In this document: positions 7,231 through 24,765 of the stretch, piece by piece | How the letters are laid out: every line of letters starts with the position of its first letter | How positions within the stretch are numbered: the first letter of the stretch is position 1 | Origin: Bacteroidota bacterium | Lineage (GTDB): Bacteria > Bacteroidota > Bacteroidia > J057 | DNA length: 24,765 bases | Assembly: GCA_039033615.1 (NCBI GenBank) | Contig: JBCCCJ010000001.1 | Coordinates: forward strand, 1-24,765 | Direction of reading: 5' to 3' | Notes under the pieces: model-generated | Told to the model about the DNA's origin: nothing | Seen by the model: only the letters and a program-made list of their open reading frames with translations | Databases searched by the model: none | Made by a program: the position numbers and the translations under genes

Positions 7231-8304
7231 TCACTCAATGCCATATTCGGCAGAGAGAAATTCCATGGCCCGCTCTAGCACCTGATCTTTGCTGGCTTGG
7301 AGGTCTGCCAGCGAGTTGCGAACCTGCAGATCCGGCACATGCCCGATGCCGTCCAGACTGCTTCCGTCTGCTTGTAGATACATCATGATGGAGTATTGAT
7401 ACTGCCATCCATTCGGCAAAAATCTGCGCATTCCCACATCCGAAAAGTCCCCTGCGGTGGTATCCCCAATTTGGGTGGTATGGGGCCTTGTTTTCAGATA
7501 GGAACAAAGGACTTCGGCTGCACTTACCGTGATGTTATCCGTGAGTAGTATCAAAGGATTGGGAGCTGATGCACCAAGCGGCGGAAAGGTTTCTTCTCCC
7601 AGAGGCTCAGCGTAGTACTTTCGCTTTTCGGTAAAATCATCATGATTGGGGCCATTTCGGGTTTGCACCGTAAATGCCAGCTCCCTTTCTGCGATGAATC
7701 GACCCGCAATGGCCGCTGCAATTTCATCGCTGCCCCCGGTATTGTTGCGAAGATCCAAAATCAGGGCTTGATTCGCCCGTACCAACGGAATCACTTCGTC
7801 CATGAAATCCTCGTCCTCCGCCTCTATGTCGCTGAGGTACAGGTACGCGATCTTTTTATCCCGGATGGTCCCAAATAGATAGCTTTCGTCTGGCTCACCA
7901 GAAAGGTCGTACTCGATCACCTGATCCAAATAAGTATTGCGGAGCAACTCCAGGCTAAACTCGGTAGCAACGGCGGAATCTTCTTCAGAACCCGACGCGA
8001 AAAAATCTCCTGCGGAAGGATCGTAGAGAAAGGTATGGGAATCATCCAGATACGCAATCATTTCGCGACAGATGCGCCACAATTCCGCGTCAGTCGTTTG
8101 GGCATTGACTTGGGGCTGATAGACTTGGTAGATGCTGTCCCAGTTCCATCCCCGTGCCTGAAACAAGCCATAGTGTTGGTCAAAGTCATCCCAAAATAAC
8201 TCCAGGTTGTTTTCTGGGGAATTGGGTTCCGCTTCCCCCAACAACTGCCGTTCACAGGAGACGCAAGTGGTCACAACGATCAAACAAAGGATCAATGATT
8301 TCAT
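7231..8304 (-). CDS. S41 family peptidase, lipoprotein
   Basis: 357 aa with lipobox TCVS|C. Tricorn-C1-like N-domain (FWDDFDQHYGLF...L.DSHT), LILDLRNNTGG, catalytic-region TVSAAE, QIGDTTAG, LPNGW and GIGHVPD. Confidence 0.93.
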   Translation of the reverse strand: MKSLILCLIVVTTCVSCERQLLGEAEPNSPENNLELFWDDFDQHYGLFQARGWNWDSIYQVYQPQVNAQTTDAELWRICREMIAYLDDSHTFLYDPSAGDFFASGSEEDSAVATEFSLELLRNTYLDQVIEYDLSGEPDESYLFGTIRDKKIAYLYLSDIEAEDEDFMDEVIPLVRANQALILDLRNNTGGSDEIAAAIAGRFIAERELAFTVQTRNGPNHDDFTEKRKYYAEPLGEETFPPLGASAPNPLILLTDNITVSAAEVLCSYLKTRPHTTQIGDTTAGDFSDVGMRRFLPNGWQYQYSIMMYLQADGSSLDGIGHVPDLQVRNSLADLQASKDQVLERAMEFLSAEYGIE

Positions 8305-8307
8305 AGG

Positions 8308-9087
8308 TTACAGGCTAATGACTGCTCCTCCAGAAAGCTGAAGGTGAGCGGTAGTTGCTGCGGTCAATTGACTGGTTTGGTAGTACTGCCATCTCCCTTG
8401 CATCTCCCAACTGATCCGCCCGGACATCTGATAGCGGTAGGAAGCAGCGAGTGTGAGACCAAAAAAATCCTGGAAGGAAGTCAGCTTGCCACGATAGGCC
8501 AATTCCAACCCCGAGCGTTCAAAAGAATCAACATCCCAGCCAGTGTAGGGCGGGCGCACCAATAGCCCAATAATTGGCAAAGATGCCGTTGCTTGCAGGT
8601 GATGTCGAGGGCTAAGCTGATACGCCACCAAATACGCTACCTCAATTCCGTGAAGGTTCAGGTAGGAGATCGCATCTGAATCTTCAAAAATGGTGTTGTC
8701 AATATGGCTGACCAAGCCCCCACCTAGCTTCATGCTGATGCGCTGCTGATTTCCACCGATGGGGAGTAGATAATGCGCCCGAAGGTGCCCAACCACGTTC
8801 TGAGCTTCGGCAAAGCGAGCAGCAGCAGCTTGGAGCTTCACCTGAGCATATCCAATTTCAGTCAAAAATAGGTGGCGGCCAGCGGTCTCTTTGGCGTAAG
8901 AAATGCGGAAGGCAAGGCCATCCCCACCATAGTGGAGCGGGGAGAAATTGGCATCTTGGAAGAACGTCCGATCATACCCCAGCTGAATCCCGAGGGTTTG
9001 GGTAGGGGAAGCGGAATTCTGGGCGAATGATTGACTGGTGAAAACCAACATCCAGCAGATCAAAAGGAGAAAAGGGGAGTTCATCAT
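8308..9087 (-). CDS. Putative outer-membrane beta-barrel protein
   Basis: 259 aa with a signal peptide (..TSQSFA|Q), many alternating amphipathic strands, a QDANFSPLHYGG motif and a C-terminal strand LQLSGGAVISL. Stop lies 3 nt from the S41 start. Confidence 0.72.
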   Translation of the reverse strand: MMNSPFLLLICWMLVFTSQSFAQNSASPTQTLGIQLGYDRTFFQDANFSPLHYGGDGLAFRISYAKETAGRHLFLTEIGYAQVKLQAAAARFAEAQNVVGHLRAHYLLPIGGNQQRISMKLGGGLVSHIDNTIFEDSDAISYLNLHGIEVAYLVAYQLSPRHHLQATASLPIIGLLVRPPYTGWDVDSFERSGLELAYRGKLTSFQDFFGLTLAASYRYQMSGRISWEMQGRWQYYQTSQLTAATTAHLQLSGGAVISL

Positions 9088-9241
9088 TGGGAAGTCTTGC
9101 AGGAAATCAGCAGATCAGTAGCGATCAAAACGCTGCTTCTTTCTGCCTGCCTCAAGTACCCCCGAGAATCAGGATGGTTGCATCGTGTCTCTGTGCTATT
9201 CCTGCTTCAACTTCTTCTGAGCAACTTCGCCATACAAGACC

Positions 9242-10012
9242 TCATTGTTGATCCCATCTCGCCCTTCTGCCCCTTACGTCAAAATGAATGGACATGGTGC
9301 CGGGATATTTGCCGAGTCCGCCGAAGTTCCCAATGATTTCCTGATCCAGTAACTTCACCAGGATCGCTTTGTCTGCTTGATTGGCTTTGCCATCTTGGTT
9401 GACATCTTTTGCCACGATGTCCACCGCCTCCCCGACTAAGTGGCGACTTCTGCTCGCTCCTCCAACTGCCTCATTGTACTTCGGAGGTCGATAGCCATTC
9501 ACCAATTGGAAGCCCGTCTCATCATAACCTTCTTGCTCCAGGCGTTGTTGCAGTTCCAGCACTTTTTCCAACAGGCGGACATGGATCAACCAATACATTC
9601 TGTCCGAGCCATTCAGGTTCAATACGTGTTGTCGATAATGCGAATCTTTCGGCAAAAAATCCTTGATTCGGTGATGGCCGACCACCTTTTGATAGATGGC
9701 GTCCCCGGGAAGGAGATAGTACGACTTGGAACTCAGCATTCCCGCAAAGGGAGCCTGATCGGAGCCGGTTGAGACTTTGTACGTGGTTGAGATGTCGGCG
9801 AAGGGAACCAGCTCGAAAGCCGCTAGCACTGCTTGCATCTCGGCCTTCGTTTCAATGGGCGCATCCGAGTGGGTCATTCGATAGGCCCACTCGTTGAGCA
9901 GATCCCGAACCCGCCAGAATTGGGCCGCCCCAACCCCCAAGATCACCAAGGAGAGGAAGCAGAAATACAGATGTTTACGGCTTAGGCGGAGCTTGACGGC
10001 AGGTCGAGTCAT
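9242..10012 (-). CDS. M15 family (D-Ala-D-Ala carboxypeptidase/YcbK-like) zinc metallopeptidase, membrane-anchored
   Basis: 256 aa with an N-terminal TM segment. NGYRPPKYNEAVGGASRSRHLVGEAVD (H-x6-D) and IHFDVRG (third Zn ligand). Confidence 0.9.
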   Translation of the reverse strand: MTRPAVKLRLSRKHLYFCFLSLVILGVGAAQFWRVRDLLNEWAYRMTHSDAPIETKAEMQAVLAAFELVPFADISTTYKVSTGSDQAPFAGMLSSKSYYLLPGDAIYQKVVGHHRIKDFLPKDSHYRQHVLNLNGSDRMYWLIHVRLLEKVLELQQRLEQEGYDETGFQLVNGYRPPKYNEAVGGASRSRHLVGEAVDIVAKDVNQDGKANQADKAILVKLLDQEIIGNFGGLGKYPGTMSIHFDVRGRRARWDQQ

Positions 10013-10494: not shown

Positions 10495-11904
10495 TTATTC
10501 CTCCAATCCCGCCCGCCATGCTACTAGGCTCTTCCGCAACGAATCCTGCAATTCTTCTTCTTGAAGAGCCAAATTTAGCTGCTCCCCCGGATCGGTTGCT
10601 AGGTCAAACAACTGAAAACTACTGTCAGGGTGGGCCTGGAAGAGTTTGTAGTTTCCGGCGATCAGGGCGGATTGTTGGCGAAAATGAAAGCCGATGGGGC
10701 TGGTCCGGGCTAAGGTGGGACTTTCCAAAAATGGCAGCATGCTCTCCCCGTCCAAAGGAGCAGGCAGGTCAGGCTGCAGATCGAGCAGGTCTAGGACGGT
10801 TGGGAGATAATCGCTGGTGGAAAAAGGCGTGGTAGTGCGGGAGTTGGGCGCAATCTTCGCCGGAAAATGCGCGATACCTGGTACCCGAATGCCGCCTTCT
10901 TTGAGGCTGCGCTTACGCTCGGAAAGCCCTGCGGTGATGCCGAGGCTACGGGGGCGATTGCGGTCATTTTCGGGACCGTTGTCGCTGGCAAAAAATTGCA
11001 AGGTATTGGCCGAAACTCCCAGCGATTGCAATTCGCGATTCAGTCGACCGACCTGCTGATCCAGGGCAGTGATGCAGCTGTAGTAATGCTGCTGCTCTTC
11101 TGGCAAATGAGCATACTGCGCCAGCAATTCCGATCCGCCGACTACCGGCGTATGCGGCGCGTGAAACCAGATCACCGCCAAGAAGGGTTTTCCTGCCTCC
11201 ACACTTTGTTGGATGAAGGGAAGCGCCCGGTCCATGATGACCCGGCTGTCATCTCCTGTCAGGTTTTCTTCGACGATCTGTCCATTCGTGTCCCAATATC
11301 GAGTCCCAAACGGCTGTCCCAAGCCTTGGTTTCCGACTCCCCCAGCCGCTTTTTCTGGCGTCAGCATGGGGTTCCAAGTAGGCACCTTGGATTCGGTGGC
11401 GAAGCTCACCTCAAAGCCATGCTCCCGGGGCGGGTTGAAATGAGCTGCGTGCTCAGGCCGTCCTCCTCGATTGGCGTCTTGGACCTCGGTGGTTAAGGTG
11501 CCGAGGTGCCACTTCCCAAAGAAGCCTGTGGCATAACCCTCTGCCTGCAGCACTTCTGCCAGGGTCAATTCTTCGGCTGGTAGGTGGCCCACATTGGCGG
11601 TGAAAATGCCGTAGCGATCCGGGTGCCGTCCGGTCAGGCAACTGCCTCGGGTAGGGGAGCAGACCGGAGCCGCCGCATAAAATCGCTCCATTATCAGACC
11701 GTTCGAAGCCAATTGATCCAAGGCAGGCGTCTGGATGTGTGGATGCCCCTGAAATCCGGTGTCGCCCCAGCCCAGATCATCGGCTAGCAGCAAGATGACA
11801 TTGGGAGGAGGAGACGCAGGCTCAGGGGAGGTACAGCTCCAAACGCCGAATAGCAGCAATGGAAGGATAAGATAAGTCAGCGACAACGAGAATTTGGGAC
11901 ACAT
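10495..11904 (-). CDS. Formylglycine-dependent (S1) sulfatase, lipoprotein
   Basis: Likely start ATG 11904 (MCPKFSLSLTYLILPLLLFGVWS|C); ORF track 12006. PNVILLLADDLGWGD, CSPTRGSCLTGR (CxPxR), GKWHLG, HAPH, SDNG and EGGIRVP. Confidence 0.95.
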   Translation of the reverse strand: MCPKFSLSLTYLILPLLLFGVWSCTSPEPASPPPNVILLLADDLGWGDTGFQGHPHIQTPALDQLASNGLIMERFYAAAPVCSPTRGSCLTGRHPDRYGIFTANVGHLPAEELTLAEVLQAEGYATGFFGKWHLGTLTTEVQDANRGGRPEHAAHFNPPREHGFEVSFATESKVPTWNPMLTPEKAAGGVGNQGLGQPFGTRYWDTNGQIVEENLTGDDSRVIMDRALPFIQQSVEAGKPFLAVIWFHAPHTPVVGGSELLAQYAHLPEEQQHYYSCITALDQQVGRLNRELQSLGVSANTLQFFASDNGPENDRNRPRSLGITAGLSERKRSLKEGGIRVPGIAHFPAKIAPNSRTTTPFSTSDYLPTVLDLLDLQPDLPAPLDGESMLPFLESPTLARTSPIGFHFRQQSALIAGNYKLFQAHPDSSFQLFDLATDPGEQLNLALQEEELQDSLRKSLVAWRAGLEE

Positions 11905-11986
11905 GGTAGGGGGTTGGCAAAAGAGGTTTTCTGCGGAAAAGAAGAAGCAGAAACCGAAAAAGAAAAAATAAACAACCGCAAAATGT

Positions 11987-12007
11987 AAAAATTTGCCTCT
12001 AGGCAAA
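11987..12007 (-). terminator. Weak intrinsic terminator after the WG-repeat genes
   Basis: Minus strand TTTGCC-TAGA-GGCAAA followed by TTTTT, 8 nt after the stop at 12016. Confidence 0.5.
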
Positions 12008-12015
12008 GACGGTTC

Positions 12016-15000
12016 TCACTCTCCTCGCTTGGCCTCGGCTGGCAATGCCCCCCCCGTATCTGGATGCCAGACCCAATTGCCAGCTCGGTCCAAGTAGCCG
12101 ATATCATTGCCTCGGGTGAGTTTGTACAAGCCTTCCCGAAAGGTAATGCTTTCATATTCCGGCTCATAGCGCCAATTTCCCGCGTGAGTGAGAATCCCCA
12201 CCTTTTGATCGGTTTTCGCTAAAAAGCTCCCATCGGCCTGGACCTGCACATCGGTGTAGCCATAGCGATCCTCGATGACTTGTAGGATTTGCGCTTGAGC
12301 GGACAAAGCAGCCTGCCTGATGGGCCGCGGAGGCATGGCTTCTCTCACATCTACCTTCCGCCAAGCCGTACCATTCACATCCACCTTATCGACTTCAGCA
12401 ACCCCATATTCAAGCAAGCGAACGTCGATGTTTTCAAAAGGGATGATCGTCTGTCCGTTCGCATCTATGGCACCCCAGAATTTGAAATCACCTACTTGCT
12501 TGTAGGCAGCGCCCAAATGATACTGGAAAGACCTCGCCTGAAGAAAAGTCGCAGGGGTAATTTCTTTCATGTCTCTACTCAGATACCCAAAGCGATAGTC
12601 CGGCCCCCCTTTTTTGCCACGGTTCATATTGATTCGATACACTGCGACCCCATTCACAAACTTCCGGACCAGATCGTATTTGGGCGAAAGCAGGAATGTT
12701 CCCTTTGAATCGCAAAATCCGACCAAGCCCTTTTCAGTGGTGACTTGGAGGTATTCGCCGACCCAGCGAATCTCCTGATATTTGGGTGGCAAAGCCCATT
12801 TGCCGTTGGTTTGGAGGAGTCCGAATAACTTTTGGGGGTAGCGAGCGATGGCGACTCCCTGGCGAAAATTGGTGGCATCCATCAGTTGCAAGCCGATCAG
12901 CATGTCTCCATTCGGTAGCACATAGCCATAGCGTCGTTTGGCGCGAACCCGAGCCACGCCTTGGGAAAAGAGCTCCACCTGAGAGAAACGCGCAGAAATT
13001 GCCCATTCCCCTTTGCGGTTAATGAAGCCCCAGTAGCGGCCTTTTTTCGCAGGAGCGAGGCCTTCTTGAAAGTCCTTGACCTGATCAAAAGTCGGCGCAA
13101 TCATTTCTTGTCCCAAGGAATCCAGATAGCCCCATTTGCCATGGATCGCAAAAGCCATCATCCCTTCTGATTGAGGGCGTAACTCATCGGCATTGATGAC
13201 TCGCTGGAGGAGGCCTTGCTGATTGAGAAGGAAAAAGCGGCTACTCTGGATTTCCCCACAAAGTAAGGGAAGTAAGCTATCCGTAGGTTCCGTCCCCGTT
13301 TCAGGGAAAAAGAGTTGATCGAAGGTTGGCTTGATCACGGGTACAAATTTCTCGTTCAAGGCCCCCCATTTTCCATTCAATTCAAAGAGGCCCAAACCAG
13401 CAGCATAATTCTCGGCAAAGTCATAATCGGGCGTTTCGCTCCATTTGCCAGACCAGTGTAGATAGGTCCATGTTCCGGGCAGGCTGCGGGGGTCAAAACG
13501 AGGTTCTTCGCCGACAGCTTTGGGAATGGGCGCAAAGAGGTATCCCCTCCGACAAGCCCGGGCGATGCCTGCTTGAAAGGGACCGATGTAGCGGGTGAAT
13601 TCTGTTTTGCGAACGCTGCCCTTTCGACTGAGTAAAACAAAAGCTCCACCGGGAAACTGAGCCCTGGCAACGGGCAGGTCTTCAAAATCCTGGATATAAA
13701 TCATCCCAAAGCGCAGGGGCTGAATGAGTTTTCCCAGGCGGTGGTCAAACAGGCCGAGGCGGTTTTGGAACAGGGTACCTCCGGTCTCTGGGTCGATGCT
13801 CCGCCGGGTACGGCCCACCACAGAAATCTCGTATTGCGGCACCGGATAGACCTCGTGAAAGGTTGGCCCGTAGCGGAGGCTGTCTCCCACGCTATCTGTC
13901 CACACCCAACGGATGGTATCCTCTGGTTGCAGCATTGACATGGCATCTACAATTCGCCTTTCCCAGCCAACTTGTCGAGGATCACTCTCCCAAAATTTCG
14001 AAGCGATCGAATCAGAAAGGATTGCTATCTGGGAGGTATCGGTCTTGGTCTGTTGCTGGCGAATCAAGAGTCGCTTTCTAGGCACAAAGCGACCTTGTTT
14101 GTCATATGCGATCTGGGTCCAGATATCGTCTTTCAGGATGCGAGCCACTCCTGGATAGATTTCGATTCGATCGCAATCTAGGTCAGATAGGAAGTCTCCA
14201 AATTGGTTGATCAGAGCGGTTTTCCCTTCTACCACGACCTTGCCCACTGCTCCTTCAAAAAGTCCCCGGCGGGTAAAGGTCGGTTCGATTCGCCAACTCC
14301 CACTGCTGTCCATCAGTCCCCATAAGCGATCTTCCTGCATCCAGAATAGGTCGTGTTCTTCTGGCACAATTTGGCGATAGCGAAGGTCAGCGATCATTCT
14401 GCCATCCTCATGGAGCAGGCCATACAAAGAATTGTCTTCCACCAATAGATAGTCGCCGCTTTCTGCCAGGCTCCAGTTGCCCAAAGGCAGCACTTCGGAG
14501 CTATCCAAGCGGATCAAACGCTGTTGGTCCTGTTCCCCCGGTATCATCAGGAGATCTGACCCCATGATTCTAGGCAGACTGGCCAATCCGCTTAGGTGCT
14601 GCTGGCCCAGGGTATCCCAGACTTCAAACCCTTGCTCTACTGCCCCTACCAATAGTCCCGCTTTGAACTGCTCAATAGAGAAAAAACGCGGGAGAATCAC
14701 CGGGGCTTTTCCTGCCTGGATCAAGCCCCAATAGTTCTGCTGTTTCATGCCGAAAAAGCGATCCTGCAAGGGAAGCAAATCTTGGTACTGAGCGGGAAAT
14801 ACCTGACTGGTATCTATTCTTCTCATGCCCACCCATCCATTTTCCTGGTATCGAATCACATATTCCCCATGGGCCTCCACCAAAGAAAGCGCATGATAGA
14901 TCGGGGCCAGAATTTCCCCTTTCCCTTGCTGATACAGCCCCAGGTGATCCGCTTGTTGGATGAGGAACAGGCCGGAGGTGGCGCTGTCGGGAATGGCTGG

Positions 15001-15156
15001 ATACATGAAATCATACTGAGGTGGCACCACCACTTGCCCCAATCGGTCCATGAAGCCCCAGCGGCCATCCGATTGAATTTCGAAGAGTTGCGCCTGGGCC
15101 CAACATGGCAGACAGCAACAGACAAGCAAGTAACAAAGGATCCGATTCATGGACAT
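12016..15156 (-). CDS. Secreted WG-repeat protein (paralogue A, 1046 aa)
   Basis: Signal peptide ending AQA|QLFEI. Many G[KR]WG[FY][IL][DN]..G..[IV]I.P.[FY]D repeats (WG_beta_rep/KWG-type). Confidence 0.92.
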   Translation of the reverse strand: MSMNRILCYLLVCCCLPCWAQAQLFEIQSDGRWGFMDRLGQVVVPPQYDFMYPAIPDSATSGLFLIQQADHLGLYQQGKGEILAPIYHALSLVEAHGEYVIRYQENGWVGMRRIDTSQVFPAQYQDLLPLQDRFFGMKQQNYWGLIQAGKAPVILPRFFSIEQFKAGLLVGAVEQGFEVWDTLGQQHLSGLASLPRIMGSDLLMIPGEQDQQRLIRLDSSEVLPLGNWSLAESGDYLLVEDNSLYGLLHEDGRMIADLRYRQIVPEEHDLFWMQEDRLWGLMDSSGSWRIEPTFTRRGLFEGAVGKVVVEGKTALINQFGDFLSDLDCDRIEIYPGVARILKDDIWTQIAYDKQGRFVPRKRLLIRQQQTKTDTSQIAILSDSIASKFWESDPRQVGWERRIVDAMSMLQPEDTIRWVWTDSVGDSLRYGPTFHEVYPVPQYEISVVGRTRRSIDPETGGTLFQNRLGLFDHRLGKLIQPLRFGMIYIQDFEDLPVARAQFPGGAFVLLSRKGSVRKTEFTRYIGPFQAGIARACRRGYLFAPIPKAVGEEPRFDPRSLPGTWTYLHWSGKWSETPDYDFAENYAAGLGLFELNGKWGALNEKFVPVIKPTFDQLFFPETGTEPTDSLLPLLCGEIQSSRFFLLNQQGLLQRVINADELRPQSEGMMAFAIHGKWGYLDSLGQEMIAPTFDQVKDFQEGLAPAKKGRYWGFINRKGEWAISARFSQVELFSQGVARVRAKRRYGYVLPNGDMLIGLQLMDATNFRQGVAIARYPQKLFGLLQTNGKWALPPKYQEIRWVGEYLQVTTEKGLVGFCDSKGTFLLSPKYDLVRKFVNGVAVYRINMNRGKKGGPDYRFGYLSRDMKEITPATFLQARSFQYHLGAAYKQVGDFKFWGAIDANGQTIIPFENIDVRLLEYGVAEVDKVDVNGTAWRKVDVREAMPPRPIRQAALSAQAQILQVIEDRYGYTDVQVQADGSFLAKTDQKVGILTHAGNWRYEPEYESITFREGLYKLTRGNDIGYLDRAGNWVWHPDTGGALPAEAKRGE

Positions 15157-15165
15157 GCGTAAGAG

Positions 15166-18100
15166 TTATCGGTTGAGCGGAATGGGATAGACCCATGTGC
15201 CTTGGGAATTGAGGTAGCCAATGTTGCCATCCAAGATGACCTGATAGAGGCCGTCTCGATAGTGAATTTGTTCAAACATGGGCGAAAAGAGGACTTCTCC
15301 CCGTTCATTGACCAAGCCTAGCAATTGATTGCAGGTAGCAACGACCATGTCTTCACTCGGGGGATGGACTTCGTCATAGCCAAAGATTTCTTGTAGTTCC
15401 TCGGACAAGTCTGGCGCTTCTACTGTTGCAAGGGGGCGAGGGGGCATCTGACTTCTGAGGTCCAGCACTTCCCAACGCTCCCGTTTCTTGTTCAAGACCT
15501 TGACCTTGGCGTAATCTAGCACCACCAAGTCATCGAATTTCATCGGCAGAATGGTATCCCCCTCCAGGTTCAACAAGCCCCATTTGCCCTGGCTTTTGAC
15601 GGCGGCCATGCTGTGTTTGTAAGGGCGAACCCGTTGGAAAGTAGGCGGAGCGATGATCTGAAAATTGGTGTCGATGATGCCCCAGCCACTTTGCTGGAGG
15701 ATGCGAGAGCGCCCTGCTACAAATCGCTCACTGATCAGGCGATAGCGGGGTTCCAGGACGGGCTCTCCCGCCAGATTGAAGTAGCCATATAGGCCTTTTC
15801 GCTTCACCCGAAAAAACTCGCCTCTTCTCCACACCCCGGCGTAGCGAGCGGGGATGAGCCAATTCCCATCGGTATCAATCACGCCTTTCCACCCAGCGCC
15901 GCGTGCGATGGCCCGCCCCTGATAAAAATCTTCCGCCCGCTGAAAACGAGGTCGGATGTGCCAGGCTCCCGTTCGGTTCAAGAAGCCATATTTGCCTTTG
16001 ATTTTGACGCGGGCGATCCCATCTACAAAATCTCCAGCCTGGTGGTAGATGGGCTCGATCTGATATTCTCCCTTCGGATCAATGTAGCCCCATCGCATGC
16101 GGCGCCGTACCCGCGCCAGCCCATCCACAAAGCTGCCCGCCCGATCAAACTGCGGCTGAACCACCAGCTTACCGACCTGATCCAAATAACCCCATTTGCC
16201 CGCGTACTTGACGGCCACCAAGCCCCCTTCAAAATCCTGACTCTCCTCATAGAGGCGGGAAAACTGCACGTTGCCCGTCATATCCAGGTAGAAAATCTTC
16301 TTTTGCCGCTGCTGAACAATGATCATACGAGTGGTATCTGCGGAATCACTGGCTTGCTCTGCCGGACCGGAAGCGAGAATGGCATCATACATTGGGGGGA
16401 TCATTTCCTCAAAACTGGTATCCACAGCTCCCCATTTGCCTTTGAATTGGAACGCCCCAAACCCATTGGAAAATGGTTTCACTGCTTCATACTTCGCCGG
16501 GAGGCCCCATTGTCCCCATTCGGTGAGGTAGCCCCATTGAGCGCGATAGGCCGTTTGAACCTCGGGCTTGCCACTCACCACTTTGGGGAGAGGAAGGTAA
16601 ATCATGGATTGACAGGCAGAGGCAATGCCATCTACCATGGGTCCGATGAAGGCGGTTTTTTTGATGGGAAAAATCGAGCCCCGGCGATCAATCAGGGTAA
16701 AGGCTCCGGTAACGAACTGAGCCCTGGCCACCCGCGAACTGGCAAAATCATCCATGTAGATGACGTTGATGTATTGATCGGGCCGGACCAATAAGCGGCC
16801 TTGCCGATGATCCACCAAGGCACACTGGCGATTCTCCACCTTGCCAGGCTCAAAAATCGCCATGGTAAGGCCTAATTCGGGATATACGAATACGTCGCTA
16901 TACTCAGGTCGAATCCGTACTCGTCGGCTGGAATCTCGCCATCCCCAGAGTCTTCGACGGTTGAGAAACCACCCATAATCGCGGGGATCAACTTCCTGGT
17001 CCAGGCTGAGGTCTTCCTCGATTTCTGCTAAGTCTTCGTCTGTTTTCTTCTGGACAATCAACCTTCGACGGAAAGCAAGAAGGCCTTCTTCTGTCAACGG
17101 GACTTGTTTCCACAGGGTGTCATTCCATACCAAAGCAGTCCTGCCCAATAGTTTCACCTCTCGATAAATGGGTTCAACCACCTTTTCTCCAAACTGATTG
17201 ATGACGCCCATGCGTCGGTCTTTTCTAACCACCGCGGCATTCCCCTGGAAATTGCCCTTGCTATTCCATTCGATCTCACTCAGCCAATTTCCTTTTTGGT
17301 CCATAATGCCCCATCTGAAATTTTCTTCCATCCAGATGCGGCGGGTCCGATCAATGTGAAGGTTGGCATACTCGGCTTCCAGGAATTGAGTTCCCTTCAA
17401 ACTGTACAACCCAAGGTTGGTATCTCGGCCGATGCTTCGCTGAACATACAGATACCCGCGATCTATCCAGGTAGTATCAAAAATGGGTGGGGTAATCACC
17501 TGCCCAGTGGAATCCAATAAGCCCTCTAACAATTCGGGGACTTCTGGAGCAGTTCCGTTCAGTTGAGCGATAGAATCTGCTGCAATCTCCCATTGGTTGC
17601 GCAGGCTATCGGGCAGGGGGTCCTGGTAAGCGAGGGTCCAAGGCGTCAAAAAACGAATGCTGGCTTCCAGGTTTTGCACGATAGGCTCCCCTTGAGGATT
17701 CCAAGCGGAGTACCAATCGCCTTGCCAGCCAACGATGAAACTATCCAGATACACCCGAAAATCTTCGTATTCTGCCGGAATGGAGAACCCCAACTCTGGT
17801 GCCCATACGCCCCAATTTCCATTCTCTTGACAGCTATATACCTGAGATCGCAAAGCCCGAATTGCCGTAAATCGAGGCGCAATCAATTCCGTCCCCAGGG
17901 TATCCAGCAGACCAATTTTCCCATCTAGCTGGATTTCAATGTATCCGCCTAACGCTTCTGAAAGATGGACCCGAAGCCGATCATATTGGGGGGGGACAAC
18001 AATGCCGCGATCCTGATGATACATGCCCATCTTCCCATCCTGGAGAAACGCGAAATAGCCCGCTTCTTGATCGGAATAGTCTTCGCTACTGTAGATGAAA

Positions 18101-18264
18101 TCAAAGGTCGGAGGAACCACTTCCTCGCCGGAGGAATTGATGAATCCCCACCGATCGCCCGATTTGATTTCGAACAATTGGGCCTGAACAAGCAGGGGAA
18201 ATGAGACCAGCGAGAAGCACAGCCAGCTTCGAAACAGATGAGGCATAACTAGAGACATATTCAT
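15166..18264 (-). CDS. Secreted WG-repeat protein (paralogue B, 1032 aa)
   Basis: Signal peptide ending VQA|QLFEI, WG repeats throughout. ATGA overlap with paralogue C and a 9-nt gap to paralogue A. Confidence 0.92.
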   Translation of the reverse strand: MNMSLVMPHLFRSWLCFSLVSFPLLVQAQLFEIKSGDRWGFINSSGEEVVPPTFDFIYSSEDYSDQEAGYFAFLQDGKMGMYHQDRGIVVPPQYDRLRVHLSEALGGYIEIQLDGKIGLLDTLGTELIAPRFTAIRALRSQVYSCQENGNWGVWAPELGFSIPAEYEDFRVYLDSFIVGWQGDWYSAWNPQGEPIVQNLEASIRFLTPWTLAYQDPLPDSLRNQWEIAADSIAQLNGTAPEVPELLEGLLDSTGQVITPPIFDTTWIDRGYLYVQRSIGRDTNLGLYSLKGTQFLEAEYANLHIDRTRRIWMEENFRWGIMDQKGNWLSEIEWNSKGNFQGNAAVVRKDRRMGVINQFGEKVVEPIYREVKLLGRTALVWNDTLWKQVPLTEEGLLAFRRRLIVQKKTDEDLAEIEEDLSLDQEVDPRDYGWFLNRRRLWGWRDSSRRVRIRPEYSDVFVYPELGLTMAIFEPGKVENRQCALVDHRQGRLLVRPDQYINVIYMDDFASSRVARAQFVTGAFTLIDRRGSIFPIKKTAFIGPMVDGIASACQSMIYLPLPKVVSGKPEVQTAYRAQWGYLTEWGQWGLPAKYEAVKPFSNGFGAFQFKGKWGAVDTSFEEMIPPMYDAILASGPAEQASDSADTTRMIIVQQRQKKIFYLDMTGNVQFSRLYEESQDFEGGLVAVKYAGKWGYLDQVGKLVVQPQFDRAGSFVDGLARVRRRMRWGYIDPKGEYQIEPIYHQAGDFVDGIARVKIKGKYGFLNRTGAWHIRPRFQRAEDFYQGRAIARGAGWKGVIDTDGNWLIPARYAGVWRRGEFFRVKRKGLYGYFNLAGEPVLEPRYRLISERFVAGRSRILQQSGWGIIDTNFQIIAPPTFQRVRPYKHSMAAVKSQGKWGLLNLEGDTILPMKFDDLVVLDYAKVKVLNKKRERWEVLDLRSQMPPRPLATVEAPDLSEELQEIFGYDEVHPPSEDMVVATCNQLLGLVNERGEVLFSPMFEQIHYRDGLYQVILDGNIGYLNSQGTWVYPIPLNR

Positions 18265-21200
18265 TCACTCAGCAGGCGAACCCATTGCAATTGTTCGTTG
18301 AGGTAGCCGACCTGATTGTGGTGGATCACTTGGTACAAGCCATTGCGAAAACGGATGTGCTCGTAGGTAGGGGGGAGGACAATTTCCCCTTTTCGGTTGA
18401 CCAGACCACACAGCTTTTGGGAGGCCCCCACGATGACTTCCGAACTGATGGCGGAGATTCGGTCAAAGCCAGGCACCACAATGGGCGTTCCTATGGGATC
18501 CAGGACGATGGTCATCCCTTCCAGGCTAGCGGTAGCGAATCGGGTTCGAGGGTATTTCTGGACAGATTCAAAGCGTTGGTTGGCGCGAGGCACCCCAAAT
18601 CGATCGCGGTATTCCCAGGTTTGGCGTTTGGTTTCGGGATCACGGGTGCGGCAACCGAGCCATTGCTCCGAGACCCATTCGATGCGCTCATATTCCAGAG
18701 GGATGAGGGTGTCGCCTGCTTGATTGATCAGGCCATAGCGAAGCGGTTTTCCGGCTCCGACGATGGCGACTCCCTGTTGGAACGCACCCGCCCGAGCGTA
18801 TCGAAAGCGGATGGCAACCTTGTCCTGCTCGTTGAGGTAGCCCCATTTGCGGTCTTTGCGGACCGCAGCCAAGCCTTCTGAAAAAGGTTCTGCCGACCGA
18901 TAGCTTGGTTCGATCAACACTTCTCCCCCGCGTTGGAGATAGCCCCATTGTTGGTCTTGCTGAAACGGGACCTTTCCCTCTCCTACTCCTCCCAAGCGGT
19001 GGTTGCCCATCGGGATTGCCCACTCGCCTTCGGCATCCAGATAGCCTTGCTGATTCTGCCCTTTGACGTAGATCCAATCGGCTCGGCGTTCGATTCGTTG
19101 ATATTTGGGTTTGAGCAAATAGCTCCCATCGGCATCTAGGAGGCCCATTTTCTTTTTGCGCACAATCGCCAGCCCATTTTTGCGATCTTCGATATTGATG
19201 TATCGGGCTTTGACGGCCCATTTGCCTTGCGCATTGAGGTAGCCCCAACGCTTTCCTTTTCGAGCAGCTGCCCAGCCTTCTTGAAAGGTCCGGACCCTTC
19301 GATAGCGATTTTTGATCTGCGACTCCCCTCGCTGGTCGATGAATCCCCAATTCCGTCGCACTTTTACGGGGGCCAATCCTTCGGCAAAAGGCTGAACCGC
19401 GGCGAAAGTCGGGGGGATGATGACTGCTCCTTTTTCATCCATGAAGCCCCACAGCTTTCCCAACCTGACTGGCAGTTTCCCTTCCTGAAAGGTTCCGACC
19501 GCATTCACATAGCGCTGCTGCCCCCCCTCCGCCAAGGAATCAGAGAGCTTTTCAAAGAGAAACTTCCCTTCGATGTCTAGGAAGGTGAATTTGTAACCGT
19601 GTAGGTGGGAAATTAATAGAGGGGACTCCAATCCATGATCGATGAGATTCATATATTGCGCTGGCAGCAGTTCTTTTCCTTGGTCGCCCAGCAGCCCCCA
19701 CAATTCATTGGTTCGGAAGGCGGCAGCCCCATCAGAAAACGGTCCGATATAGCTCGCGCTGGTGATTCTGCGTTCTCCATTGGGTAAAATGAGGCCCCAC
19801 CGTCCGTTGATGTTGCGCAAGGCCCCTTCGTCCGTCAATTGGTCGGAAGTGAGGGGTTCTTTGAGCTTCCTTCCCACCTGAAAGCGGTAGATGCTGTCGC
19901 TGGGAGCAGAGATCGCATTCACAAAACGCTGGCCGTCGAAGGCTAGGGATATTTCGCCAGGACCGCGCCCCCGTCTTCCATATGGATCCAGCAGCTCATA
20001 CACGGATGAGGGAAGTTTGGCCCGGAGAAAATTACTTCGCTCCAAATCCTCCACCATCATTTGCTCATAGCTGACAGAAAACATGAGATTCACGCTGCGA
20101 TGATGGAACAAGCCGTAGCGGGCCCGGCTTGGATACCTGGTGTTGAGGCCCACGATGCTGAATTCGTGTTGGGGATACACCCGAACCGAGTCATAGCGTG
20201 GCTTGAGGCGCAGACGTCCAACAATGGTATCGCGAATGCCCCATTTCCCCCGGCGCTGAAACCACCCATATTCCTGATACAGGTCTCGCTGACTGCTTTC
20301 GGAGCGGGTACGCAAAAATTTGTAAGCCGAGGCACTTTCGGCAATGATGAGCTTTCGCCTCCGAATGGGGTTCCCTGCTTCGTCGAAACGAAACTGTTTC
20401 ATACTGGTGTCCTTGTAGGCCCGTACCATGCCCGGATAAATCTGGAGGAATTCGTATTCCAGCGGTACGATGGTATCTCCCTGTCGATTGATGACACCGT
20501 ATGCCTCCGTATTTCGGATGCGGGAGACCGGACCTTCAAAAAATCCTGGCGCATCATAGGTCGGGGGAAAAACGGGTTCCCCTTCTGGCGATAGGAGTCC
20601 CCACCTTTCTCCATCCGAAAACCAAATGTGTCCACTGGTGTCTATGCGAATATTGCGGTAGGCAAAATCCAGCAGGGTATCTCCTTGGGGCGACAATATG
20701 CCCCAGCGAACATTGGCGCGAGCTTTGAAAAATGGCCCCAGGGGAAGCAAATGGTCATAAGCAGCCGGCGTAACGGGCGTATTTCCTTTCCCCAATATGC
20801 CCCAGTTGTTTCGATCCTGATACAAAAAAACGCCCTGACTCCAACGTTTGATGTGGACGGGTGCGGCTTCGATCAGGCGTTCTCCCTGCTGATTCCAAAC
20901 ATGAGATCGCCCCTCAAGGTCTAGCCCAACGATGAGGGTTTCTGCTGCTTTTTTTAGGTAAAAAATCCTCCGGTATTTCACAGGTAAGGACCACTCATTG
21001 GTCAGGTGGCGAAGTCCCCACCGCTTTCCTTTTCGCAGGCTTACACAGCCAGGAAACAGGAGGTCAATTGCATCGTACTCAGCGGGAATGTTTTGGTTGT
21101 CTTCGGGGCGAAGGAGGCCATATTTCCCTTCGATGACAATTTTGAGGCTACGCTCATCATCGGGTTCGAGGAAAATCTGATCGTATTTGGGGGGAAGAAT

Positions 21201-21422
21201 TTCCCCCAGGTCGATGTGGTACAGGCCCGTTTTGCCTCCCTTTTGGGTAAGGAAGTAACGGGAATCCTCCGAGGGATAGAGATAGTCAAAGGTTGGTTCC
21301 AACACGACCCGCCCGGTTCGGTCCATCAAGCCCCATTGATTGTTGGCTTTGATTTCATAGAGCTGAGCCAATGCAGATGCCGGACAGAAGAATAAGAGAA
21401 GAGCGTAAGCAAGGAGTCGCAT
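18261..21422 (-). CDS. Secreted WG-repeat protein (paralogue C, 1053 aa)
   Basis: Signal peptide ending ALA|QLYEI, WG repeats throughout, same C-terminal GLY..V...[IV]GYL...W motif as A and B. Confidence 0.92.
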   Translation of the reverse strand: MRLLAYALLLFFCPASALAQLYEIKANNQWGLMDRTGRVVLEPTFDYLYPSEDSRYFLTQKGGKTGLYHIDLGEILPPKYDQIFLEPDDERSLKIVIEGKYGLLRPEDNQNIPAEYDAIDLLFPGCVSLRKGKRWGLRHLTNEWSLPVKYRRIFYLKKAAETLIVGLDLEGRSHVWNQQGERLIEAAPVHIKRWSQGVFLYQDRNNWGILGKGNTPVTPAAYDHLLPLGPFFKARANVRWGILSPQGDTLLDFAYRNIRIDTSGHIWFSDGERWGLLSPEGEPVFPPTYDAPGFFEGPVSRIRNTEAYGVINRQGDTIVPLEYEFLQIYPGMVRAYKDTSMKQFRFDEAGNPIRRRKLIIAESASAYKFLRTRSESSQRDLYQEYGWFQRRGKWGIRDTIVGRLRLKPRYDSVRVYPQHEFSIVGLNTRYPSRARYGLFHHRSVNLMFSVSYEQMMVEDLERSNFLRAKLPSSVYELLDPYGRRGRGPGEISLAFDGQRFVNAISAPSDSIYRFQVGRKLKEPLTSDQLTDEGALRNINGRWGLILPNGERRITSASYIGPFSDGAAAFRTNELWGLLGDQGKELLPAQYMNLIDHGLESPLLISHLHGYKFTFLDIEGKFLFEKLSDSLAEGGQQRYVNAVGTFQEGKLPVRLGKLWGFMDEKGAVIIPPTFAAVQPFAEGLAPVKVRRNWGFIDQRGESQIKNRYRRVRTFQEGWAAARKGKRWGYLNAQGKWAVKARYINIEDRKNGLAIVRKKKMGLLDADGSYLLKPKYQRIERRADWIYVKGQNQQGYLDAEGEWAIPMGNHRLGGVGEGKVPFQQDQQWGYLQRGGEVLIEPSYRSAEPFSEGLAAVRKDRKWGYLNEQDKVAIRFRYARAGAFQQGVAIVGAGKPLRYGLINQAGDTLIPLEYERIEWVSEQWLGCRTRDPETKRQTWEYRDRFGVPRANQRFESVQKYPRTRFATASLEGMTIVLDPIGTPIVVPGFDRISAISSEVIVGASQKLCGLVNRKGEIVLPPTYEHIRFRNGLYQVIHHNQVGYLNEQLQWVRLLSE

Positions 21423-21492: not shown

Positions 21493-21577
21493 AAAATGAT
21501 TCAGGAAGCAGAACCGGAGATCACTCCCTTGTGGTGGGGCAGTGCGGGCGGTAAAGGACTCATGGCAACAACATATA

Positions 21578-21625
21578 GCAGAGAGGAGAGGCGTCAGAAT
21601 CTACTCTGAAGCTTCGCCTCTCTGC
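21578..21625 (-). terminator. Long imperfect hairpin downstream of the 487-aa lipoprotein gene
   Basis: GCAGAGAGG...TCAGA-ATCTAC-TCTGA...CCTCTCTGC (9-bp outer and 5-bp inner stems), followed on the minus strand by TATATGTTGTT. Confidence 0.5.
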
Positions 21626-21653
21626 TTGGGAGATCAAATCAGGATCAGGGCAG

Positions 21654-23117
21654 TTAGCCTGCCGATACGATGAGTGCGCGGAGGTCAGCCGGAGAAGTGA
21701 TGGTGGTGCCCGCTTCCTTCATCTGGAAAACAAAGTCTCCACTTGGTTTTTGCTCTGCAAAATCTTCCACAGAGAACACTGCAACTTCGTTGCCTGGGAG
21801 GAAAGCAAAGATCATGTTCTTGGTGTTAGGAGCATATTTGAACTGGCTCCAGCCATTCCAGCTACCCCCACGGGCATAGGGAATGACTGCATTATCCTCG
21901 GGCATGACCAGATATACCTGTTCGATGATGCTAGGGTCCACCGGAATCTCGAATTCGTCGAAGCGAAAATCTGCCGCCAATACCATCTGGGGACGATTCC
22001 ACAGGCGATCACAGTTGTAGATGCCAAAGGAACTGATCTGGAAAGCCCGCTCGATGCGCTGACGCTTGGCTGCCAATTGGCGCTGCGTTCTCATCCGCTC
22101 CCGAGCCGCGAGAATTTCCTGGCGACGCTGCTCTTGCTTGCGGCGCAATTCTGCAAATAGCTCCTGGGTCTGAGCATAATTTTCTTCTTCCACTACCGGA
22201 GTTACCAGCATTTTGGCTTCCTTCTCCTTGTTGCGCAGGGTGAAGTAAAAGATGCCATTCCGCTTGGGGTGTTGTTGCACACTGACATTGGCCCATACTT
22301 CGCCAAAAATCCATTCGGCAGTATTGGGATTCACATAACCCTCTTCCTCGATTTGGGCATATTGCCACACCAGTTCTTTATAGGGTGCCAAAGCAGGGAA
22401 TTGAGAGTAGTCTGCATCAAAATCAAAAGGCGTGGCATCTTCTGCCAACTTCTTGGGTTCATAGGGTTCAGCCGGAATTTCTTCTTCTGCCAATTCCATG
22501 ATGGCAGCGATTTCTGGGTCGGAAGCCCAATCCATTTCTTCCCCTTGGCTGGGGTCCATGACGCTCTCGGCTTGGGAAGTTTCCAGGTACGACCAGTTTT
22601 GCGTTTCCTCGTCCAACTGATAGAGGTTGTAGCCATGTTCAGGCACGTAGGAATTCAGGTCGAGATCAATGGCTTTGCCTTCGGCGATGAAGACAGGCCG
22701 TCCATTCTGGTTGGCGCGGATCTCCACCATGCCTGCGGTCTGAAAGACAAAGGTCTGACCAGCAGAGTCATATTGCATGGGGATGCCACTCATCAGAATA
22801 TCAGCCGCATCATGAAACTCCCGGTAGCTGAGGTCCACTTTTCCCTGAACGGGTTGATTGTTGGCGTCCACCAACACTCCAGCAGGGATGCGGATAGAGG
22901 TGCCATTTTCGAGGGTCAATTCCGTCCCTTCGCTGGCTTCGACGGTGAAGCGTTGTATGGGGACCTGAACGTTTTCCAGGGGAGGATTGATTCCGATATC
23001 AGCTACCTGGATAGCTGGAGTGGAATCCAATTGGGCAGATTCTTCAGTGGCGTCTGGCGCACAAGCACTCAGGAAGCCCATTGCGACGATGGCCCAAAGC
23101 AAAGATTTCAGATTCAT
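21654..23117 (-). CDS. Uncharacterised lipoprotein (487 aa) with beta-rich N-domain and coiled coil
   Basis: Lipobox FLSA|C followed by acidic residues. IRIPAGVLVD...VQGKVDLSYREF...ILMSGIPM...TAGMVEIRA, a charged helical stretch, then FQISSFGIYNCD. Confidence 0.88.
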   Translation of the reverse strand: MNLKSLLWAIVAMGFLSACAPDATEESAQLDSTPAIQVADIGINPPLENVQVPIQRFTVEASEGTELTLENGTSIRIPAGVLVDANNQPVQGKVDLSYREFHDAADILMSGIPMQYDSAGQTFVFQTAGMVEIRANQNGRPVFIAEGKAIDLDLNSYVPEHGYNLYQLDEETQNWSYLETSQAESVMDPSQGEEMDWASDPEIAAIMELAEEEIPAEPYEPKKLAEDATPFDFDADYSQFPALAPYKELVWQYAQIEEEGYVNPNTAEWIFGEVWANVSVQQHPKRNGIFYFTLRNKEKEAKMLVTPVVEEENYAQTQELFAELRRKQEQRRQEILAARERMRTQRQLAAKRQRIERAFQISSFGIYNCDRLWNRPQMVLAADFRFDEFEIPVDPSIIEQVYLVMPEDNAVIPYARGGSWNGWSQFKYAPNTKNMIFAFLPGNEVAVFSVEDFAEQKPSGDFVFQMKEAGTTITSPADLRALIVSAG

Positions 23118-23489: not shown

Positions 23490-24764
23490 TCAATTGAGTT
23501 CTGATTTTTTCCCAGCCAACGGAGCCACCAACCAGCTTTGGGGCACTTCAAACTCCGGTAAGGCTTCGAAGACCACTTCGGTCTGCCCGGCTTCCCAATA
23601 TGCCCGCCATATTCCTTGATCGGGATGCCCCAACCACAAGATCAACGGCCCTTGTTGTTCCGGTAACAATACCTGTTCCGCTTCGACCGGAGCCTGCCAA
23701 AATGTACCTGCTCCTTCAAAGGTGAAGTAGAGATGGCCGACCATCAAGCTGGCATCCAAGCTTTCTCCATCCGGCTGAAGGAAGGTCAATGTCTGTCCAG
23801 ACAAATCCAATTCCGTGGGGAGTCCAATTCCTACCAAACCTAGTTGCTGAAATGGCACGATCTGCTCACAGACTTGTACTGAATCCTGACTAGCGGCTTC
23901 CCAAGCTGCGACGGCTTCCTCATAGGCCTTCAATTCGGCCACTTGCTCAGCCTGAAGGGCCTGATCTTGCTGAAGCGCCGCTTCTCGCGCCGCTACGGCT
24001 TCCCGGTATTCCCGATATCGCTTTTGGTAGAGTTGATCGGCTTCTGCTTGGGAGCGAGCTTCAAACATGGGTAAGGCCTCCACGATCTTGAATTCCAGGC
24101 CGGAATCCGTTTTGCGACCGAAGCGAAGTTCATACGAATTGCGATCAGTCTTGGGGCGAACCCGTACATCTTCCCACCCTTGACCTTGTCCAATCAAGCC
24201 TTCTTCCCAGGGATTGGCCGAGCCTGCCCCTTCCAGGTACTCCCAGTACATTTGTTCATAGCCCCGGAACTGTGGATAGTTCGCCAGGTTTTTCACCTTC
24301 ACTCCGAAGGGTTTACCAGGCTTCTGCGGGAGCATACCCATAGATTTGGGGACGAGTTCATCAGGGTTGTCCATGGCCAGCCACTCCGGCGCTGCTGGTC
24401 TCGGACCAATGAGGGATTCATCTGGCGCCAACCAATTCACTTCGGCTTCCGGCAAGGGCAGGAGCTGCCAGTTTCCATCGGCTTCAGAGAGGGTTGCCCA
24501 TTGAGCACTTTCTCCCATTTGACAATTCAGGTAGCGGACCTCCATTGGCTGAGACAAACTCACTGCCGAGCCATTCTGACTGGCCAAGACTTCCAGCATC
24601 AGAGGAGCGGTCCAGCTTTGTTGCTCCTGATTCATCATTCGTCCACTCAGAAACAGATCAGCGGGGTTGTCCAATAGTCGAACCTTCAATTCCAGCTCTC
24701 CGCTCACTGGCGTACCATCCGCTTGCTGAAATGCTTCTGCTGGGATGGCCAATACTACCTCTTC
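23490..24764 (-). CDS. Paralogue of the 487-aa lipoprotein (5'-partial, start outside the window)
   Basis: The frame is open to the window edge (EEVVLAIPAEAF...), so the TTG at 24752 is not the true start. AIPAEAFQQADGTPVSGELELKVRLLDNPADLFLSG aligns by eye with RIPAGVLVDANNQPVQGKVDLSYREFHDAADILMSG. Confidence 0.85.
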   Translation of the reverse strand, partial: EEVVLAIPAEAFQQADGTPVSGELELKVRLLDNPADLFLSGRMMNQEQQSWTAPLMLEVLASQNGSAVSLSQPMEVRYLNCQMGESAQWATLSEADGNWQLLPLPEAEVNWLAPDESLIGPRPAAPEWLAMDNPDELVPKSMGMLPQKPGKPFGVKVKNLANYPQFRGYEQMYWEYLEGAGSANPWEEGLIGQGQGWEDVRVRPKTDRNSYELRFGRKTDSGLEFKIVEALPMFEARSQAEADQLYQKRYREYREAVAAREAALQQDQALQAEQVAELKAYEEAVAAWEAASQDSVQVCEQIVPFQQLGLVGIGLPTELDLSGQTLTFLQPDGESLDASLMVGHLYFTFEGAGTFWQAPVEAEQVLLPEQQGPLILWLGHPDQGIWRAYWEAGQTEVVFEALPEFEVPQSWLVAPLAGKKSELN

Positions 24765-24765
24765 C

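Follow-up and report, generated by a model that had tools for sequence, protein, structure and literature searches.

Three giant WG-repeat proteins at an ECF sigma-linked locus of a Bacteroidota bacterium and their predicted docking partner

Why would a bacterium keep three giant, length-matched paralogous genes in a row, and are their products partners of one another? The question is posed by the window analysed here, a stretch of 24,765 bp that forms the entire contig C1 of a Bacteroidota metagenome-assembled genome (7.15 Mb in 1535 contigs, 86.5% complete), in which the genes A, B and C each encode a secreted protein of about 1040 residues composed of WG repeats. WG repeats are common in bacteria, and we know of no function for them and of no solved structure; a literature search on the Pfam family concerned, PF14903, yielded almost nothing beyond lists, and no paper linking these repeats to sigma signalling. 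A preliminary description of the locus proposed that the three proteins are non-redundant subunits of one heteromeric envelope assembly. The comparative and structural evidence set out below is better accounted for, probably though by no means assuredly, by a triplication within the genus of the last gene of a conserved set, comprising an extracytoplasmic function (ECF) sigma gene, P0005, P0004 and a WG giant, in which the giants dock on proteins of the P0004 family.

All three open reading frames (ORFs) are intact (Table 1) and their products are clearly paralogous. Pairwise BLASTP gives collinear alignments over nearly the full length, running from the signal peptides through to the final repeat, for A and B (25% identity, E 6e-98), for B and C (29%, E 1e-127) and for A and C (25%, E 6e-85). 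B and C are the closest pair, and both contain the MPPRP motif that the preliminary description had taken as the mark of the closest relatives. WG_beta_rep (PF14903) is the sole Pfam family in A, B and C, at 257, 314 and 204 bits respectively against a cut-off of 25.6, and an NCBIfam search of the three found no family. The coordinates also bear out the tight junctions reported before, the stop of A overlapping the start of B as ATGA (18261-18264) and B being separated from C by a gap of only 9 nucleotides (nt; 15157-15165).

The ends of the proteins are shared as well. Each signal peptide ends in AxA followed by Gln, and the cleavage sites of the three align; the mature proteins all start with the motif QL[FY]EI..WG and all finish with I.[FY]R.GLY...[IV]GYL...W, as had been noticed earlier. 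The public gene call for B begins at Met7 of the ORF given here (P0006, 1026 amino acids, aa). Gln as the first residue of mature signal peptidase I substrates is known as the Bacteroidetes Q-rule (PMC5837995), so the Gln is a habit of the phylum and no special feature of these proteins. We agree with the preliminary description that there is neither a lipobox nor a type IX secretion system (T9SS) tail: no signal peptide of the three fits the lipobox consensus, the C-termini consist of WG repeats, and neither Pfam nor NCBIfam finds a T9SS C-terminal sorting domain (Por_Secre_tail PF18962, TIGR04183 or the type B C-terminal domain) in A, B or C. Sec/signal peptidase I signal peptides, together with the lack of cytoplasmic features, support the assignment of all three as exported envelope proteins, as far as this can be read from sequence.

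Table 1. Coordinates of the trio, of its upstream genes and of associated elements. Positions are those of the window except where contig C11 of the same assembly is named; a slash marks the cleavage site.
Feature	Position	Strand	Remarks
Giant A (P0001), 1053 aa	18261-21422	minus	Intact ORF; heads the trio; secreted WG_beta_rep protein
Giant B (P0002), 1032 aa	15166-18264	minus	Intact ORF
Giant C (P0003), 1046 aa	12016-15156	minus	Intact ORF
Signal peptide of A, residues 1-19, ...ALA/Q	21366-21422	minus	Sequence reading; mature N-terminus Gln
Signal peptide of B, residues 1-28, ...VQA/Q	18181-18264	minus	Sequence reading
Signal peptide of C, residues 1-22, ...AQA/Q	15091-15156	minus	Sequence reading; aligns with the A and B cleavage sites
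Predicted docking segment of A, residues 332-367	20322-20429	minus	A side of the interface modelled with P0004
Homologous strand of B, residues 398-408, FRRRLIVQKKT	17041-17073	minus	Alignment
Homologous strand of C, residues 359-369, PRKRLLIRQQQ	14050-14082	minus	Alignment
P0004, 487-aa lipoprotein, LSAC lipobox	21654-23117	minus	Proposed dock of the giants
P0005, P0004 paralogue, membrane-anchored anti-sigma-like form	23490-24765	minus	Truncated by the contig end
First ~102 residues of P0005	C11:14-319 (L124, L129)	minus	Same assembly
ECF sigma gene	C11:333-905 (L124, L129)	minus	Same assembly; 63% identical to the sigma of the congener G001
RNA hairpin between P0004 and A	21577-21626	minus	Imperfect, no T-run; -30 kcal/mol, z -4.65 vs shuffles
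Weak terminator-like hairpin with T-run	11992-12007	minus	9 nt past the stop of C; pattern scan; z -1.09, not significant

What kind of protein a giant is can be read from its repeats. A repeat hidden Markov model built here finds 16-22 repeats per giant, laid out as an N-terminal array (~20-370), a sparse middle, a C-terminal array (~575-915) and then two final repeats. The preliminary description had treated the middle as a non-repeat module common to the three. An AlphaFold2 model of B, built from a 19-sequence alignment, has a mean predicted local distance difference test score (pLDDT) of 82 and a predicted template modelling score (pTM) of 0.40; it is all-beta with four strands in each unit of ~34 residues, and contains disordered linkers at 401-424, 632-644 and 943-962. 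The central region of B (376-575) is conserved, is all-beta in this model as well, and carries degenerate WG-type motifs (GWF...WGLRD..I.P.Y, GL..H..G....P.F and YIG.F.DG.AR), and a profile of the central region matches 6-13 stretches within each giant. The all-beta model, the degenerate motifs and the self-matches of the profile together indicate that the centre is not a foreign domain but a diverged array of WG-like beta repeats, accompanied by a disordered linker. The loop insertion that had been placed in the same repeat of all three was likewise not found; B alone has an insert, of ~40 residues, within which the model places a helix (219-236).

Structural comparisons of the B model lead to beta-propellers. 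Foldseek returned nothing but propellers, with E down to ~1e-16 and a template modelling score (TM) of ~0.1, and VIA also returned propellers, at Z 7-8 and root-mean-square deviations (rmsd) of 5-10 Å, among them Bap1, a designed propeller, sortilin and BamB; the top match is Bap1 of V. cholerae (Z 8.2, rmsd 9.0). Matches at this level are usual for any blade repeat. At a pTM of 0.40, the blade-like repeats and the Z 7-8 matches to propellers leave closed rings a candidate arrangement. A PDB sequence search with B found no matching chain.

The near-equal lengths of A, B and C had been put forward as a sign of non-redundant subunits, and here the wider family is informative. A profile of the central module, run against 1.84 billion representative proteins, matches 217 clusters (50% identity) at E<=1e-30; nearly all of these proteins are 1000-1200 aa long and have the module at the same position. 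A and B (the latter as P0006, the former as P0001) are among the top matches and C aligns throughout, and all three have the properties that define the sub-family, a length of 1000-1200 aa and a diverged central module at ~330-640. The N- and C-terminal motifs are also kept in the sampled members of the family, those present in single copy included. Since length and ends are family-wide, they provide no evidence for a partnership of the trio: the lengths (1053, 1032 and 1046 aa) are indeed nearly equal, but the same range recurs in at least 217 clusters. A separate, word-indexed homologue search returned 16 proteins; it missed the 46%-identical copy of the congener and was left out of the counts.

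Copy number varies among the relatives. Three giants are present in the window genome and in G001, a genome of the same genus, and a single one in each of three genomes from other genera of the same family (G013, 99% complete; G017, 100% complete; and G014). A further genome, G004, which is 64% complete, has at least one full-length giant, and a single giant was found in each of four more distant genomes that were reached by way of related loci. G001 has orthologues of A, B and C that are 41%, 45% and 36% identical to them, respectively, but differs in their arrangement: those of A and B adjoin with a 33-nt gap in place of the overlap, and that of C (L030:3498-6602) lies on the opposite strand some 15 kb away. 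The tight coupling of the window genome is therefore not conserved even within the genus and, with copy number varying as it does, the idea of obligate stoichiometric subunits is not supported.

The phylogeny agrees only in part with the expectation, also contained in the preliminary description, that A, B and C would form conserved clades. Each of the three pairs with its own G001 copy at 100% bootstrap support; clades of this kind extend to the congener and to none of the other genomes examined. The single copies of G013 and G017 group with A and the G004 copy groups with B, with moderate support. Constraining all six genus-level copies to one clade costs 33 log-likelihood units and is weakly rejected (approximately unbiased test, AU, p 0.025), a result on which we do not build because the six-copy clade was named after the tree had been seen and the branches are long. 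Two histories fit the tree: the gene may have been triplicated within the genus, or A may have parted from B/C earlier, with loss in other genera. Whichever of them holds, the single giants function alone.

If the giants are not partners of one another, their upstream neighbours offer another candidate. Immediately before A stands P0004, preceded in turn by its paralogue P0005, and Pfam has no family for either. The N-terminal part of P0005 is found together with an ECF sigma gene at the start of contig C11, from which we conclude that contigs C1 and C11 abut. The local order in the window genome is accordingly sigma, P0005, P0004, A, B, C, and that of G001 is sigma, membrane form, lipoprotein form, A, B. 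A P0004 orthologue stands directly upstream of a giant in G001, G004, G013 and G017.

An alignment-based scan, using one genome per species, identified 80 loci of the P0004 family across Bacteroidota. In 15 of these a P0004 relative lies directly upstream of, and on the same strand as, a WG giant of 950-1200 aa, with spacings that run from an overlap of four (-4) to a gap of ~250 nt; the two genes overlap or abut in three loci (L076, L082 and L097). The 15 loci carry the labels Flavobacteriales, Crocinitomix, Cytophagales, Acetofilamentum (Bacteroidaceae) and unclassified Bacteroidota, and the congener is the only one among them with two giants in succession. Sampling from the side of the giants gave five informative contigs, of which two have a P0004 relative upstream, one of them also with a sigma gene. 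Linkage of giant and P0004 relative is thus frequent, short of universal.

The P0004 family comes in two forms, one with a signal peptide or lipoprotein signal and one in which a membrane helix comes after ~30-50 cytoplasmic residues. Among the 53 loci whose upstream sequence could be read, 48 have the membrane form directly after an ECF sigma gene; nine of the sigma genes were checked with Pfam (Sigma70_r2 and r4). A sigma gene paired with a single-pass membrane protein is seen in G001 and in six other loci (L036, L039-41, L044 and L120), and in L039-41, L044 and L120 sigma, membrane form and giant form one run.

Some loci of this family are organized differently. At the Acetofilamentum locus it is a LuxR-type response regulator (L069:499-1110), not an ECF sigma, that precedes the P0004-like lipoprotein and the giant. 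In giant-less loci the sigma and membrane-form genes are often followed by one for a secreted protein of ~250 aa (L045, L060, L066, L073, L075, L094 and L110); these proteins belong to no Pfam family and have the motifs I[YF]VRK...PYVKVEYKYYL...DTPRVDT in common. As a class, the ~250-aa genes after giant-less membrane-form relatives are heterogeneous and no docking motif is obvious in them. Such a protein may be another partner of the P0004-type outer domain.

Structure prediction gives the P0004 family a recognizable outline. An AlphaFold2 model of P0004 (pLDDT 86.8, pTM 0.70) consists of a beta-sandwich, a middle domain, a 40-residue helix and a C-terminal beta domain. The sandwich superimposes on 3ud1_A (Z 10.2, rmsd 2.8 Å over 125 aligned residues) and on the GAIN domains of CD97 (Z 9.6) and BAI3 (Z 8.8), so that in the model its topology is ZU5/GAIN/FIIND-like; Foldseek gave only a weak match (E 0.027). 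The last strand of the sandwich, with the conserved sequence R.F.I..FGIYN.DR (357-371), follows an insert of ~170 residues that contains the middle domain and the 40-residue helix. In eukaryotes the ZU5/GAIN/FIIND fold is known to cleave itself before its last strand, and in the corresponding strand of P0004 no HL/T or F/S autoproteolysis site is obvious. A PDB sequence search with the P0004 alignment gave chance matches only. Look-alikes of P0004 in the Atlas (astroprincin/FAM171 and CarboxypepD_reg) fell below a score of 0.9 or a TM of 0.5 and were set aside as leads only.

Relatives of the P0004 fold in AlphaFold DB include some that are named FecR-domain proteins and some that are fused to leucine-rich repeats, both of which would fit an adaptor between repeat-built binders and anti-sigma signalling. 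We note that fusions of this kind (A0A2M8ACI9 and A0A7W1IM67) would, by analogy, be the covalent counterpart of the non-covalent pair of giant and dock proposed here.

A specific contact between the two families is predicted by a complex model of residues 20-540 of A with mature P0004 (43-487), each supplied with a separate alignment of its own. The complex scores 0.65 (0.65, 0.46 and 0.65 in the individual runs) against 0.01 for the best of three controls; the score mark applied is attained by 58 of 80 solved complexes as against 2 of 110 mismatched pairs, a calibration that is rough here owing to the use of own alignments. At least 70% of the contacts agree between runs and the partner pLDDT is at least 77. 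We know of no similar complex, which makes it unlikely that the model reproduces a known one.

The modelled interface is conserved on both sides. On A its core is a strand at 354-364 (RRRKLIIAESA), between the N-terminal array and the disordered linker, and on P0004 it comprises residues 229-236, 268-276, 292, 294 and 310, among which P230, F233, D236, G272 and W275 are invariant in the four closest P0004-family proteins. The strand belongs to a motif, FDE.G......[KR].[IL].[VI], that is present in A, B and C; in 98 aligned giants, 93 have the Gly at position 350, 84 have I or L at 358 and 96 have V, I or L at 360. The corresponding strand of B (398-408) borders the ordered region of the monomer model, with pLDDT dropping there from 76 to 38, as would be expected of a strand that becomes ordered only on its partner. 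The complex model supports binding of A to P0004 but does not show it.

Taken together, these results suggest the following arrangement. The conserved set would consist of an ECF sigma factor, the single-pass, anti-sigma-like P0005, its lipoprotein paralogue P0004 and a WG giant. The giant would leave the cytoplasm through Sec, signal peptidase I then exposing its N-terminal Gln, and, lacking a T9SS tail, it would most likely stay in the periplasm. It would fold into ~28-30 four-stranded WG blades, arranged in three propeller-like arrays, of which the N-terminal and the C-terminal one flank a diverged central one, and the conserved basic-hydrophobic beta-strand that separates the N-terminal from the central array would add onto the middle domain of a P0004-family protein. 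Strand addition would hold the giant to a partner anchored in the membrane, with the membrane form linking it to the ECF sigma factor. The three paralogues of the window, which keep the docking strand and diverge elsewhere, would then be alternative binding or sensing modules for the same docks and not mutual subunits. What survives of the heteromeric envelope assembly in the preliminary description is that the giants are exported, are probably co-expressed and probably belong to a multi-protein assembly; membership of A, B and C in one another's complex is the part left without support.

This reading, of genus-level triplication with docking on the P0004 family, draws on the observed paralogy, family membership, copy numbers and gene order, on the sigma linkage of the membrane form and on the conservation of the strand, to which the models add the fold of the giants and the docking; a periplasmic location, a sensing or regulatory role and any ligand of the giants would lie a step beyond these. 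Several points weigh against it. About 65 of the 80 P0004-family loci have no giant, and in three of the five informative contigs sampled from the giants' side no P0004 relative adjoins. The docking comes from a single prediction, made for one paralogue, A, over half its length. The ~48-residue cytoplasmic segment of the membrane form matches no Pfam anti-sigma domain, so that the anti-sigma role proposed for it is read from gene position and topology. A strong hairpin stands in the 231-nt gap between P0004 and A, and their co-transcription is therefore not established. As to the triplication itself, the split of A from B/C may be older than the genus and have been followed by losses, to judge from the tree.

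A further-reaching version would make the giants periplasmic ligand sensors, strand-docked on the ZU5/GAIN-like outer domain of an undescribed family of ECF anti-sigma factors, with the window genome encoding three alternative sensors for one sigma/anti-sigma pair, plus a lipoprotein that acts as a decoy or a second dock; we regard this as possible, if somewhat doubtful. Alternatively, the giants could each act independently as binding proteins of the periplasm or surface, sharing only their regulation with the sigma/anti-sigma genes, as regulon members induced by envelope stress, and making no contact with P0004 or P0005. ECF sigma factors often drive neighbouring genes, many giants stand alone, and the hairpin and gap just mentioned separate A from P0004. 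We nevertheless think such independence unlikely, given a complex model that scores far above its controls, an interface conserved on both of its sides, and the overlapping or abutting P0004-like and giant genes of L076, L082 and L097.

Of the remaining alternatives, the hetero-oligomer of the preliminary description, in which A, B and C would be non-redundant subunits of a heterotrimer or filament, made in fixed ratio and matched in length, appears improbable. The ATGA overlap and 9-nt gap of the window genome speak for it, as do the integrity of all three genes and the presence of an orthologue of each in the congener, and a head-to-tail pairing through the first and last repeats, which are conserved, is conceivable; set against this are the one giant in each of seven other family-bearing genomes, two of them 99-100% complete, the unlinked C orthologue of G001, and a length and terminal motifs that single-copy members of the family have too. 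Least of all do we expect the giants to be secreted adhesins or parts of a surface layer, exported by a non-T9SS route with P0004 as their surface anchor. Large all-beta, propeller-like proteins do include matrix proteins such as V. cholerae Bap1, the top VIA match, and acidic residues, which near the lipidated Cys can mark surface lipoproteins in Bacteroidota, occur soon after the lipidated Cys of P0004. However, Pfam and NCBIfam find no T9SS C-terminal domain, the fold match is of a level common to any propeller-like repeat, and a periplasmic site is what the link with an anti-sigma-like protein anchored in the membrane suggests.

Signals for transcription of the trio are few. Scans for sigma-70 promoters and for the Bacteroidota TAnnTTTG promoter gave hits at chance level and no promoter for the three genes. 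The hairpin between P0004 and A, which comes just past the stop of P0004, could be an attenuator, a processing or stability element, or a repeat element, and the weak terminator-like hairpin after C gives no more than a hint that the transcription unit ends there.

The next ORF on the far side of C encodes a sulfatase (Pfam Sulfatase and SGSH_C; 10495-12006), and we note that its TTG start at 12006 overlaps the terminator-like hairpin, the likelier start being an ATG at 11903 with a signal peptide behind it. The sulfatase was dropped as a candidate member of the operon for this reason and is probably a unit of its own; in those related loci that were read, none of the giants has a sulfatase after it. 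Further downstream on the same strand are genes for envelope peptidases, one with S41 and Tricorn C1 domains (7231-8304) and one that is M15/DUF882-like (9242-10012), with a 259-aa ORF without assignment between them, and the related loci show no link between this run (7231-10012) and the trio. A second, unrelated ECF sigma gene lies at 355-846 on the minus strand, and the ORF downstream of it (2-358) runs off the start of the contig; these may be another sigma/anti-sigma pair.

The comparison with relatives defines a large and uniform sub-family of WG proteins, with at least 217 clusters at 50% identity, and conserved gene order ties its members to a hitherto unannotated lipoprotein/anti-sigma-like family with a ZU5/GAIN-like predicted fold. 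A short conserved strand provides a specific predicted contact that can be mutated, and with it the question of what WG repeats do takes a form that can be tested at the bench. A more general lesson is that a heteromer should not be read from paralogues merely because they are tightly coupled and equally long. Should the giants prove to be sensors that dock on an anti-sigma factor, this would be the first functional context for WG repeats, and ECF signalling in Bacteroidota would gain an input architecture of a new kind.

Among known families, the giants resemble other proteins of PF14903, which is related to the KWG Leptospira repeat, in consisting almost wholly of ~35-residue repeats. They differ from PF14903 at large in forming a sub-family, unnamed in the databases, with a fixed architecture of 1000-1200 aa, in the order signal peptide with Gln at +1, conserved first repeat, docking strand, disordered linker, diverged central array, canonical C-terminal array and conserved last two repeats. 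The four-stranded blades of the B model recall those of DDB1, the sensor domain of the BT4663 hybrid two-component protein, BamB and the Vps10p domain of sortilin, although the giants have no sequence relationship with any of these.

As a gene set, the locus is reminiscent of sigmaE-RseA-RseB and FecI-FecR-FecA, in which an ECF sigma factor is likewise followed by a single-pass protein with a large outer domain and then by an exported, here predicted, binder. Unlike RseA or the C-terminal domains of FecR, the P0004-type outer domain is modelled as a ZU5/GAIN-like sandwich with a long helix insert, and the partner is neither a TonB-dependent transducer like FecA nor a lipid binder of the RseB type but a soluble repeat protein of 1000 residues. 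The locus also differs from both the RseA-RseB and the FecR-FecA systems in having an extra, lipoprotein copy of the outer domain.

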